A DNA stretch of 64,000 bases. It comes from Octopus vulgaris (taxonomy: Eukaryota). A program made the position numbers and the translations under genes. The notes under the pieces are model-generated. The model did not search any database and had not been told where the DNA came from. It was given only the letters and a program-made list of their open reading frames with translations. The DNA lies in contig OX597829.1 of the NCBI GenBank assembly GCA_951406725.2, positions 35,030,001 through 35,094,000 on the forward strand, in the 5' to 3' direction. This document shows, piece by piece, positions 12,056 through 21,893 of this stretch (positions within the stretch are counted from its first letter, which is position 1; the number at the start of each line of letters is the position of its first letter).

Positions 12056-12645
12056 ATTATCCGTTCGGGATAAGCTCTACAGACCCGCTTCAAGAAACAC
12101 CAGACCGACTTGCCCAAAATGCAGTCAGAGCGACGAAACCGTTCTGCACGCACTCGTGCAGTGTCCAACCATTTCAGACCTTATGGGCTTATGTCGAACG
12201 GCTGCTATCATGTGCAGGACGAATTCGATTATGGGCTAAGTCTATCGTGAATATTGCCCCGCCACCTTCCTTTAACCAGGAAGGCAAGGCAGTTTTCATT
12301 CTACTGGTGTCTATGGTGAAAGAATGTGTGTGGTGGAATCGTGGTTTAGAGACAAACACTTTCACCTCTGGCCGACCTCTTTGCTCTCATGTGTTTCTTT
12401 CCCTGCCTGAGGTTACCGTGGTCCTTTTTCGTAGGCTTTTCTTTCCACGGATAAACCTCATCTCTATTACATTTTTACTCCCCCTTTCAGGAACACTGTT
12501 ATAAACGGAACATTGTTATTTCGCTGTTTACACGCCCCAAACGCTTTCGATCTCTTTTGATCGTATTTTTTTTCTCTTTCGAAAATGAAATGCTCTACAT
12601 TGCATTGTCTCCTCTGTATTCGGCCCTGGGCGGCTAATATAGAAA
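12056..12645 (+). mobile_element. 5'-truncated Tx1-family LINE copy (ORF2 C-terminus and 3' UTR)
   Basis: VRDKLYR..PTCPKCSQSDETVLHALVQCP matches 18220-18540. Ends cggccctgggcggctaatatagaaa directly into (TCTA)n. Confidence 0.9.
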
Positions 12646-12777
12646 TCTATCTATCTATCTATCTATCTATCTATCTATCTATCTATCTATCTATCTATCT
12701 ATCTATCTATCTATCTATCTATCTATCTATCTATCTATCTATCTATCTATCTATCTATCTCTCTATCTCTCTATCTA
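12646..12777 (+). repeat. (TCTA)n microsatellite between two Tx1-family copies
   Basis: Direct read. Confidence 0.95.
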
Positions 12778-12978
12778 CGGACGTGCTGTCACTTCGGCTC
12801 CGAAGGTAATAGTTTATTTTGACTATTTATAGCCCAATTTTTGTGTACATTTTTGCAAATAAGATGTGTAAGGAAGGCACCCAACTTTCGTTTGAGTGCT
12901 TTTCCAAGGGAGGAATTCGCCCCTAGGGGCAGTTTCAACATCATTTCATTTCTGTAATTTTCTTCTCGACATTAGAAA

Positions 12979-15202
12979 ATGTCGAGAAATTTTATTGTAG
13001 AACGCTGGTCGCGTTCCTTTATGGACCAGCATTTTCCTAGTTTGGAAACGCTAGGAGGAAAAAAGAACGTACGCACGCAAAGTGCAAACATGAATAACGG
13101 TCGAATGAACGCTGCAACCACGTGCGGTAACAGACCTGTCACCACCACCACCACCACTAACAACAACAACCACGAGACTACTACTGCTACCACCACCGCC
13201 TCCACCACCACCACCACCACCGCCACCTCATCCACTACCTCAACTACCAACAACAACAACAATAACAATGACAACAAGAATAATAACATTTGCGCCACCA
13301 TTTCGACATCTGCTGCCACGGCTGTCTCTTCTGCCACTGACACTACCGCCAACAACAAAAACAACAATAACAACAACAACAATCCCGTTCAGACCTTGTC
13401 TCCTCAAAGAACAAGAACTGAAGGGAATAAACAAAAGACTGTGACCACCAAACAAATTGACAAAAGCTGCTTGAATACAGGGATAAACTATGTAAGTAAT
13501 TTCCACCCCTTCCTACTTGCACAATCAAACCAAATACACCGATTTTACCAACTGCAGCCAACAACAACATCATCACCAGCAACAACAATAACAAAACAAC
13601 AACAAATTTCGCCGAGGCGATAAAAGAAAAAAAGACAACAGTATATTTTACTGCACAACAAATAAAAGACACGAACATTTTAGTAACAGAAGTAGATGGT
13701 ATAGTAAAAATAAACATACCACAAGAAATATTAGAAGATGAAAAAAAAAGAACAATTATTTATAAAATAATTAATAAGAAAACAAAAAGTCCAGAGAAGG
13801 CTAACACAAGCAAAATCGAAAAATGCTTGAAACCCATCTGGAACTACAAAGAGTATGTGACCTGGTGGAACAAGTTCGCACACATACAAGTGGTATTCCA
13901 CACTGAGGAGTTAGCAAGACGTTTCTCAACGCTAACTCTTCATTCAGATGAACTTCAACTAACACCAAGCTATCGTGGACATAAAGTGACTAAGATCACT
14001 TTAAACAATGTCCCCAAAATAGCTAACAATCTATGGCTAGTAAAGGCCTTATGTGTGAAAATGGAAGATTTCACAATTTTAGAAACCACGGTCACGGAGC
14101 ACAAAAACTGGGTGGGAAAAAAAGTAGAATTTCTACTACATATAAACCAAGAGGACATAAAGAAAATACCCACCCAGATATGTGTATCAGAAGACCACAA
14201 GTTGTATGTGGTCATCGATGGCAGAAGACCACGTTGCTACATATGCGGCAGTGAGCAACACCTAAAAAAAGATTGCAAATCTGCCGCAAGAAAACAACAG
14301 CAACAACAACAGCAGCCGGAAAAAAAAATAAACCAGCTTTACTACCCACACCACGTTTTGCACGAACAGGACTAATCACAGAAAATCAACAAAAAACAAA
14401 CCTCACCAACCAAACAACCACACCAACTGCACCAAGAACAGAATCAACACCACCAACAACAACAATCAAGAATAAACCAACTCCCAAACCAAGGACATCT
14501 GCCAAAAAGACACTCATCGAAAATGAAGAAACAATTACTACTCCAAATCCCCACAAAATTGACACCCCAAACAACACAACAATACCTACAATCACTCAAA
14601 CACAAAATACCCACACCCCACCTCCAAAACCGCATACACCACAACCAAACGCTCACCAACCAACACCAACAACAAAATCAACACAGTCTACAATAGACCC
14701 CAATATTTTCCCTCTTCCAAGCTCTGATTCTTCTGATTTGTCATTAGACGAAGAAGACACAGAAGATTGGCAAATAGCCACAGGGGGGAGAAGAAAAAGG
14801 GGAAAAAAAAGAGAAGAAAAGATAACAAACAAAGCAGGAAGATTCACCACTCCCGAAACAAAAACATCCACAGAAAACAAACACATCAACACAAACACAC
14901 CATCATCAAGCCCCCCAACAATGTTAACAGCCATAAACACAAACAACCACGACCTAATGGAACACATTAGGTCAAACACCAACATAACTGAAAACGACAT
15001 AAAAACAAGTAACCACCCACGCACAACACCACCACAACACATTAAAATAATACACGTAACACAGAACACATACAGCACCCTGAAATCTCTTTACCGTGAT
15101 GCAGTAGGGAGATTTCAAAAGTACTCATCAAAGAACCTATACAAAAACCTCATGGAAGAAGACTGTGAGGTGAAAAACAAAGGACTTTCGAACAACAAGT
15201 AA
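12979..15202 (+). pseudogene. Tx1-like ORF1 (gag-like nucleic-acid-binding protein), two frameshifts (~13498 and the A-run at ~14325)
   Basis: Joins ORFs 12979, 13827 (frame open from ~13500) and 14273. Zinc knuckle CYICGSEQHLKKDC follows VVIDGRRPR. Thr/Asn/Pro-rich termini. Confidence 0.85.
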
Positions 15203-15268
15203 CCTTTTCTCTCTCTCTTTCCTTTTCTGCACTTTCTTTTCGTGTGTAAAACACAATTTTATCGGAAC

Positions 15269-19294: not shown

Positions 19295-19825
19295 CCTATC
19301 TACCTATCTATCTATCTATCTATCTATCTATCTATCTATCTATCTATCTATCTATCTATCTATCTATCTATCTATCTATCTATCTATCTATCTATCTATC
19401 TATCTATCTATCTATCTATCTATCTATTTATCTATTTATACATACTTCACAGACACATAGATAGATAGATAGCTAGCTAGCTAGCTAGCTAGATAGATAG
19501 ATAGACAGACAGATAGATAGATAGATAGATAGATAGATAGATAGATAGATAGATAGATAGATAGATAGATAGATAGATAGATAGATAGATAGATAGATAC
19601 AGCTAACTAGATAGATCGATAGATAAATAAGTAGACCCATAGATAGATGGATGGATAAATAGACAGATACATTGATCGGCAGAGATATGTTAGACATTTA
19701 AATAATCGATAGAGGCAGAAAGGTATCTATCTATCTATCTATCTATCTATCTATCTATCTATCTATCTATCTATCTATCTATCTATCTATCTATCTATCT
19801 ATCTATCTATCTATCTATCTATCTA
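19295..19825. repeat. (TATC)n / (GATA)n / (TATC)n alternately oriented microsatellite block
   Basis: Direct read. An (AGCT)n tract lies at ~19471-19490. Confidence 0.9.
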
Positions 19826-21658
19826 GACAGATAGATCGATCGACATAAGTGCAGATATATGTCTACATGGACACTGTCGGTCAATATTGGTGTCAGCTGA
19901 GAGTTGAAGTCATTTTGTACTGTCTAGCTTGTCACAATTTCAACGTGATATGAATTTGGCAAGAATTCAAGAGAATTCAAGAGTCTTGCTAACTGTCTCT
20001 AGTTAGGCTGGCCTAATTGATTAGGCTGTCTGAAAGTTGGTTAGATAGGCATATTGTCGTCGATTCTGCCTGCCAGATTTTGTTTTGCAAATAGAAGGTT
20101 GCAACACAGCAAGTAGATATTCGAGCTTACACACACGCGCACACAAGCTTGTGTGCAGACACAATGGCACACACATAGACACATGTGCACATTCGCACAA
20201 CACACACACACACACACATCCAAACATTACATACATACACACACAAAAACACAAATGCATAAAAACACACACACATATACAGAAATACTGAGCATGCGTA
20301 TAAATGTGCTTGTATCAATCATATGGATACTCTTTCTGACACATACAGAAAACACACAACAAACACACAAAAGAAGAAAAAAGAAACAGTTACATGTGTT
20401 TGCCAACGTTCGTATGTCTGTATATATATATTTATTCAAATACATACACACGTCTTTATACACGCACACATGTACATGCGTCTGCGTATTTGTGCGTTTG
20501 TGAGAGTGTGTGCGTGCGTGCGTGCGTGTGTGTGTGTGTGCGTGTGTGCGTGTGTGTGTGTGTGTGTGTGTTTGTGTATGAAGAAAGAACGAGAAGAAGA
20601 GGAGAGAGAGATAACTCAGAAAGACGCATGTCCGAAGTATACATATGTGTGTGTGTGTGTGCATGTGCGCATGCGCGAGTGTGTATCTGTCTCTCTCTCA
20701 ATGCATACACACACACACACACACACACATACACGCATACACATGTATAAATGTTTTTGTGAGTGTAGGACATACTCAGAGAAACCACATCTCTTTCAAA
20801 TTACACGAACTCACACACACACACACACACAGATATACACACACACACATGTGCGCGCATATACACACAGACACTCACATTCTCTCTCTGTCCCTCTCAC
20901 ATACACACACACACACACTCTCTCTCTCACGCACGTTTTCTCTCATACACACTCTTCCATTCTCTCTCTCTCTCCCCTTTCTTTCTCTCTCTGTCTGTCT
21001 CTCTCTTTTTCTCTCTCTCTCACACACATAGACACACACGGTGAAAAAGAGATATTTGCAGACAGATCCATGAACTAACATCTACGGCAGACATGGATAA
21101 TGTACGCATATTTTCGTGAAAATTCGTTCACAATTATTTATCTTGCATACGTTCATTGTCGATCACGGATATTTTTCTTGCAAACAGGATATTCAGTATA
21201 TCCCATGAGCAATGTGAACAATGCTATCAGTAGCATTGAGAGTTCAGCTATTTCATGGATAGGAAAGCCAAGACAAATTGAAGTAAAACAACTACTTCCA
21301 TCAATGTTCCAACAGTTTTAGTGTTATTCTACTATTTCCTTCTTTCTTTTCTCTACTGACCAGACCAATATTAACATACATTTGGAATAGAATAGGATAC
21401 CAGAAGATTAAATGATAAAACGATAGTGAAAGTGGAAAGGGGTTTTAGCTGTGTGTGTGTGTGTGTGTGTGTGTGTGTGTGTAGGTCTTTCTAGAAGGAA
21501 TACTGAGATGTAGAAACTAACAGACTATGAAATAATAAATGATTAAGAAAACCAATCGGAAGGTTCTACCTACCTACCTACCCACCTACCTGCCTGCCTC
21601 TCTGTCTGCCTGCCTGCCTGTCTGTCTGTCTGTTTATCTATCTATCTATCTATCTATC

Positions 21659-21738
21659 TTTTTTTCATCCCCCAAAAGAAAAGCTCTACCTTGTAACTTG
21701 TCCCATCAGTGTGCAGCCCTGTGTGGCCAATAAAGAAA
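21659..21738 (+). mobile_element. 80-bp 3'-terminal fragment of the Tx1 family embedded in (TATC)n
   Basis: aaaagaaaagctct..ttgta..tgtccc..tgt..cagccctgtgtggccaataaagaaa matches 18925-18989. (TATC)n on both sides. Confidence 0.85.
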
Positions 21739-21893
21739 CTTATCTATCTATCTATCTATCTATCTATCTATCTATCTATCTATCTATCTATCTATCTATC
21801 TATCTATCTATCTATCTATGTAACAACCCATCTGTCAGTCAGCCTGCTTGTCTGTCTGTCTGTCCATCCAAAACCAAACACCCACTCTCCCAA

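Follow-up and report, generated by a model that had tools for sequence, protein, structure and literature searches.

Does the (TATC)n repeat that borders a family of long interspersed nuclear elements (LINEs) in the octopus mark the target into which these elements insert, or is it a tail that they carry with them? The question is raised by a stretch of 64,000 nucleotides of Octopus vulgaris DNA (assembly GCA_951406725.2, contig OX597829.1, positions 35,030,001 to 35,094,000, forward strand; hereafter the window), in which a preliminary description made from the letters alone had noticed three copies of a Tx1-clade LINE beside (TATC)n/(GATA)n microsatellites. We consider it probable that an L1-group, Tx1-like LINE sits one-way in (TATC)n arrays that existed before its arrival, and that reverse transcription is primed at a nick made in the (GATA)n strand by its own apurinic/apyrimidinic-type (APE) endonuclease. 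The family is large, has one orientation to the repeat and a fixed 3' phase, lacks poly(A), is flanked by arrays even where copies are randomly truncated, and makes duplications of 8-20 bp. The features of the window on which the argument draws are the following.

~12055-12645, plus strand: copy 1, 5'-truncated, older subfamily, with the end of open reading frame 2 (ORF2) and the 3' untranslated region (blastn to the full-length copy)
12645-12777, plus strand: (TCTA)33 array, at once the 3' flank of copy 1 and the 5' flank of the full-length copy (Tandem Repeats Finder, TRF)
12779-18991, plus strand: full-length copy, 6.2 kb, youngest subfamily seen, with ORF1 and ORF2 both frameshifted
12979-15202, plus strand: ORF1, broken, with a low-complexity N-terminus and a predicted RNA-binding region (ORF list)
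15269-18689, plus strand: ORF2, with APE endonuclease, reverse transcriptase (RT) and C-terminal zinc finger (tblastn with the open ORF2 of locus L108, Pfam)
18946-18991, plus strand: conserved 3' tail, predicted to fold into a short hairpin, with AATAAA standing 7 bases from the end
18992-19012, plus strand: 3' target remnant of the full-length copy, TATCT and then degenerate NNCT units
21635-21658, plus strand: (TATC)6, 5' flank of the stub
21659-21740, plus strand: 82-bp 3' stub, third subfamily, 80% identical to the full-length copy
21741-21819, plus strand: (TATC)20, 3' flank of the stub (TRF)

Sequence and blastn agree with the preliminary description on the places of the three copies, on their shared orientation, on the absence of poly(A) in all of them, on the run of copy 1 into (TCTA)n and on the (TATC)n at both sides of the stub. 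It had treated them as one family, which holds, although they represent three different subfamilies, with the ends AATATAGAAA, AATAAAAGAAAGT and AATAAAGAAACT in copy 1, the full-length copy and the stub, respectively. Copy 1 matches the full-length copy in two blocks of 84% and 69% identity (blastn), and the stub is 95% identical to a copy in locus L143. Directly 3' of the full-length copy stands TATCTGGC, followed by degenerate units. Copies with the same ends as this one, at 93-96% identity, occur elsewhere in the genome (G000).

ORF2 is broken into six frame pieces in the window, and four other copies in the genome (L108, L110, L123 and L130) have it open over 1,130-1,159 codons. Two open ORF2s were translated; each has 1,145 amino acids and their mutual identity is 82.5%. 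Pfam reported PF03372 (E = 2e-13), PF00078 (E = 7e-32) and PF13966 (E = 2e-7) on a naturally open 1,145-amino-acid ORF2, and the resulting layout of APE endonuclease, RT and zf-RVT is that of L1-group non-long-terminal-repeat retrotransposons, as are the 5' truncations (80 copies, 32-3,343 bp) and target-site duplications described below. The best solved relative of ORF2 is L1 ORF2p (E = 3e-61), with R2 proteins at E = 3e-20, a coarse comparison given that solved relatives exist for these clades only. Among named proteins, the nearest homolog is one from Argonauta hians (70% identity in the RT region). It forms one clade with P0001, P0002 and P0004 in a quick tree, with full support, and the sister of this clade consists of proteins with about 50% RT identity. 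ORF1 has a putative CCHC knuckle near 14232-14282 (zf-CCHC, E = 9e-4, weaker than the curated cut-off), and its look-alikes in the Atlas carry zf-CCHC/RRM (0.88-0.90). The ORF1 of Tx1-clade elements has a CCHC knuckle instead of the vertebrate-L1 type. By ORF2 domain layout and RT kinship, the family belongs to the L1 group. We call it Tx1-like because of its L1-group domains, putative CCHC knuckle, target specificity and lack of poly(A); membership in Tx1 is likely, although the homology searches yielded no sequence named as Tx1, Kibi, Koshi or Keno.

A genome-wide tabulation of the sequences that follow the 3' end, which the preliminary description had suggested as a check, made the association with the repeat plain. 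Exact matches of a 19-nt tail motif numbered 10,015 (0 for the reversed motif as control), a lower bound on copies since the motif misses diverged ones such as copy 1. TATCT followed within 4-9 bases of the motif in 8,770 matches (88%), and TATCTATC in 7,430 (74%; 3,634 of 4,948 on the forward strand alone, since minus-strand matches can count twice). The first five bases past the element end were T-A-T-C-T in 107, 108, 105, 99 and 102 of 111 ends, not the (TC)n or (TTC)n into which Kibi and Koshi insert, and none of 118 3' ends examined had a run of at least 8 A. An array stood at 80 of these 118 ends (68%) versus 95 of 703 random TATCT sites (13.5%), so that the preference for arrays over lone TATCT sites is five-fold. 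The specificity is not strict, since roughly one in eight copies lies at a site sharing TA or TAT only, and off-target sites mostly retain these bases at the junction. PMC4494074 (published sources are cited here for the available parts of their text) calls a family target-specific when more than 20% of flanks are of one sequence type; here the share is 74-88% of 3' ends and 65% of truncated 5' ends.

In a genome with many microsatellites, random insertion followed by survival or mis-assembly in repeat-rich regions might be imagined to yield such an association. We give this explanation next to no credence. It is refuted by the orientation, antisense GATAGATA following the 3' end in just 9 matches at 4 loci against the 7,430 in sense, and by the fixed TATCT phase. 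Further, the element is seldom flanked by (AT)n, (AAT)n, (AC)n or (ACAT)n, although these repeats outnumber (AGAT)n by a factor of 3-9, and the same junction recurs in independent runs of other organisms.

A repeat at the 3' end alone could be a tail, and the 5' ends are therefore the critical ones. Among the 40 best matches to the 5' end, 30 loci were fetched and all 30 had (TATC)n directly upstream (judged by eye). We set this aside as proof of targeting, as variants of the flank travel with internal variants of the element: among 36 full-length heads, one internal variant is present in 10 of 10 that end in TCTGTCTAT and in 1 of the 26 others (P = 4e-8, descriptive only, the copies being related). 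This linkage argues that the last bases of the upstream repeat are copied along with the element, and it is the reason why the last ~9 bases of the (TCTA)33 array likely belong to the head of the full-length element. The preliminary description was thus right to place this copy at the far end of the array, part of which is nevertheless carried by the element itself.

Since the 5' flanks of full-length copies are not independent evidence, truncated copies were used as the test. From 118 distinct 3' ends, 38 were excluded (23 cut at locus edges, 8 full-length, 6 unresolved, 1 gap), which left 80 5'-truncated copies of 32-3,343 bp; three of their junctions were corrected by hand. At least 3 sense TATC units stood at the 5' break of 52 of the 80, and antisense units at none (0/80). 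The same threshold was passed by 111 of 56,880 background windows (0.2%), taken from 200 kb at 20 arbitrary places. Arrays were also present at 38 of 63 breaks with no upstream family copy within 400 bp and at 37 of 59 breaks in loci chosen by motif alone. Array lengths are symmetric about the element (median 78 bp at 5' and 56 bp at 3', P = 0.62); 7 copies combine a long 5' array with at most 12 bp at 3', and 12 copies show the reverse.

Head-to-tail pile-ups of up to 4 copies per 7 kb in one array were seen at L093, L096, L097, L102, L107 and L146, each newer copy having inserted in the repeat left by the previous one. The copy at L024 is 5'-inverted, and (TATC)n nevertheless precedes its head. 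Clean internal deletions occur in several young copies (L094, L096, L105, L106).

Informative duplications of 8-20 bp were found in 12 of 88 copies. Among copies with an imperfect 3' flank, 10 of 49 had a duplication, compared with a mean of 2.5 and a maximum of 7 in 1,000 shuffles. The duplication at L103 (15 bp) has an AACTTT interruption on both sides, that at L088 measures 13 bp, and those at L019 (8 bp) and L139 (9 bp) lie outside any array. As these interrupted or non-array duplications start at the first post-element base, no long tail was added at the four loci. Young copies whose 3' array is short were also looked for; the 5 matches were all interrupted long arrays and added no duplications. 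The duplications, together with the arrays at 52 of 80 truncated 5' ends, argue against a self-encoded 3' microsatellite tail. The preliminary description would have been refuted by arrays confined to 3' ends with random 5' flanks and empty sites, the pattern of such a tail, or by a lack of enrichment over background; the truncated copies show neither, and its proposal of (TATC)n/(GATA)n as the insertion target is upheld by the truncated copies, the symmetric lengths and the duplications.

Other organisms were consulted for the 3' junction of the full-length copy (comparison region, window 18955-19285). In organism C, the alignment of single contigs (X6, X9; 349 nt) starts at the first target base, 18992, and another 23 letters of these contigs do not match the element end; in organism E, a contig (X19) aligns from 18992 with 4 non-fitting letters. 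Because these contigs align from the first target base only, the end of the full-length copy is absent at the orthologous site. The comparison of filled and empty sites that had been proposed for the family succeeded in this respect and yielded no empty allele at a second locus, L019. Family 3' ends continue into (TATC)n in 26, 24, 28 and 11 contigs of X6, X9, X19 and X20, and (TATC)n targeting is common to at least three other organism labels (C, E and F). A metagenome scan for flanks of the nearest non-octopod relatives found none.

These observations also bear on whether the arrays were there first. An element could land at a short TATCT site, its duplication or a short tail could seed repeats on both sides, and slippage could expand them; about six truncated copies with only 3-6 units at 5', the size of a duplication, and a weak correlation of 5' and 3' lengths (rho 0.27, P = 0.015) fit such an origin. 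We nevertheless judge it very improbable that the arrays were born at insertion. Arrays of ~100 bp already flank young copies (97-98% alike) at both ends, several short sites have remained short, and the contigs of organism C end 23 letters upstream of the target, where a pre-existing simple repeat would be expected to break them. A more limited point is that none of four array loci in the 200 kb of random DNA visibly adjoins the family, so that arrays arise without it too.

If the arrays are indeed the target, the question becomes what recognizes them. Under the reading that we prefer, the APE endonuclease would nick the bottom, (GATA)n strand at 5'-GATAGATA|-3' or close to it, leaving a 3' end that would prime reverse transcription; the second nick would fall on the top strand, 8-20 bases downstream. 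We infer from the sequence that the endonuclease is specific for the repeat. Its earlier characterization as a programmable-insertion-type endonuclease found no support in the analysis. The transcript probably starts inside the upstream array. At its other end, the nearness of AATAAA to the element end leads us to propose that transcription probably continues into a few UAUC units past that end; they would pair with the nicked strand and set the register, and the repeat at the head would allow full-length cDNA to anneal to the upstream array.

Such pairing could also do more than set the register. Two further groups of elements in the window are relevant here, a short interspersed nuclear element (SINE) with a similar tail and an older relative of the LINE.

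26346-26500, minus strand: SINE, ~215 bp (loci L208-L217)
49909-50517, plus strand: older sister LINE family (element at 49909-50499), 67-83% identity to the young subfamily (loci L171-L173 and L179-L207)

The last 43 bases of the SINE are 84% identical to the LINE tail, and its body may resemble the Nin domain and octopus tRNA-derived SINEs. The SINE tail has 38,423 exact matches and TATCTATC follows only 99 of them; duplications of 15-17 bp were seen by eye in 3 of 10 copies. Possibly, the SINE was mobilized by a relative of the (TATC)n LINE that is itself untargeted. In the sister family (30 loci, with rough junction calls), (ATT/ATC)n stands at 13 of 17 3' ends and at 3 of 26 resolved 5' ends; it does look like a LINE with a self-encoded 3' microsatellite tail.

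Both groups suit an alternative in which the endonuclease has little specificity and nicks widely near TA, priming being efficient only where the 3' end at the nick pairs with the read-through (UAUC)n of the element's own transcript. The element RNA carries a repeat head (the TCTGTCTAT variant, 10 of 10 versus 1 of 26), AATAAA lies at most 8 bases from the end, TA or TAT is kept at off-target junctions, the tail-sharing SINE, which would lack read-through, is untargeted, and the repeat of the sister family is found mostly at 3'. We regard targeting set by the RNA as rather unlikely: several duplications leave the repeat after 3-6 bases, so that pairing can be very short, arrays are preferred over lone TATCT sites, and specificity in the Tx1 clade resides mainly in the endonuclease according to PMC4494074. 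We keep it in consideration because the SINE is untargeted and the sister family mostly 3'-only. A related evolutionary scenario, which we think distinctly doubtful, would lead from an ancestor with a 3'-only repeat tail to an RNA framed by (UAUC)n that steers a loosely specific endonuclease. As targeting would then be RNA-guided in cis, this tail-to-target transition would account for the lack of targeting in a SINE of 38,000 copies that has the same tail, and an RNA with a different terminal repeat would be led to a different target.

Several points weigh against an endonuclease that selects pre-existing (TATC)n. At 28 of the 80 truncated 5' breaks fewer than 3 units were present, among them the 5' junction of copy 1, where the flank reads without TATC, and 17 of the 80 copies have no array of at least 3 units on either side. 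The junction sample over-represents the first 10 Mb of contig C1, as well as young copies with the best scores. The simple repeat at the empty site of organism C is deduced from the contig break 23 letters upstream. At L019, the alignments listed include no joint that skips the element; X15 and X3 have contigs that begin within its last 24 bases, under the 31-letter rule, which gives no more than a hint that the site is filled there. The fixed 3' phase is equally expected from RNA pairing and from a specific nick. Finally, an untargeted SINE with a homologous tail requires, under a model of enzyme specificity alone, another LINE as its mover.

The window holds further repeats and LINE remains. 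Three (TATC)/(GATA) arrays of alternating orientation lie at 19296-19825, 300 bp 3' of the full-length copy, with no adjoining family end. Very old fragments related to the family ORF2 (32-38% amino-acid identity) are found at 37394-38371 on the plus strand, and pieces of other LINE-like frames, one with a weak endonuclease match, at 23757-25208 on both strands. A different LINE at ~51280-52970 (minus strand), with a zf-RVT match and C-terminal motifs resembling a restriction-type endonuclease, has (TAA)n/(CAA)n arrays at both sides, in keeping with a Dong/R4 element, for which (TAA)n is the published target.

How does the octopus family compare with what is known? Microsatellite targets of LINEs include ACAY, AC, TC, TTC and TAA (PMC3812793), to which TG was added (PMC4640811), and Tx1 targets include TC, TTC, TTCC and TTTC (PMC4494074). 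The family had been thought tetranucleotide-specific and possibly undescribed. Its target is a tetranucleotide, but such targets as TTCC and TTTC have already been published for Tx1 (PMC4494074), and therefore only the (TATC)n/(GATA)n repeat and the mollusc host are new, the kind of system being known. We found no report of a LINE with (TATC)n or (GATA)n as its target in the literature searched, a scope outside which Repbase, Dfam and the original 2004 survey lie; Repbase may already list the family or the target. The available parts of PMC4758252, PMC10294476, PMC3381678 and PMC5804259 contain nothing on a (TATC)n target. In Octopus vulgaris, 13 recently active L1-Tx1 families with 421 insertions have been reported, with no target analysis in the available text (PMC13282606), and the (TATC)n family may be among them. 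The mechanism by which LINEs target microsatellites is not well understood, according to a review (PMC3812793). For this mechanism the octopus genome offers internal controls: thousands of targeted copies in several subfamilies, open ORF2s, a mostly 3'-only sister family and an untargeted SINE. Additionally, (GATA)n markers in octopods will often have high-copy LINE flanks.

Waldo, Mino, Dong and Togen are LINEs of other clades (R1; R4 and NeSL-related). Like the octopus family they are orientation-fixed in simple repeats, with other targets, namely ACAY, AC, TAA and TG (PMC3812793, PMC4640811). Human L1 ORF2p (PDB 8sxt and others) is the closest solved structure over residues 4-857 and has the same endonuclease-RT layout; human L1 ends in poly(A) and prefers TTAAAA weakly (PMC3812793), whereas the octopus family lacks poly(A) and is strongly targeted to a repeat. 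The teleost Tx1 elements Kibi, in (TC)n, and Koshi, in (TTC)n, are alike in being APE-type L1-group LINEs inside a microsatellite; compared by description, they differ in their pyrimidine-only repeat and their hosts from the octopus family with its (TATC)n and at least 10,000 copies (PMC4494074, PMC3812793). The crocodilian Tx1 families in (TTCC)n or (TTTC)n share a tetranucleotide target and differ in repeat and phylum, and their SINEU shares the target of Tx1-Mar, which the tail-sharing SINE of the octopus does not do with its LINE (PMC4494074). To this short list of microsatellite-targeting LINEs, the octopus family adds a well-supported target and a mollusc host.

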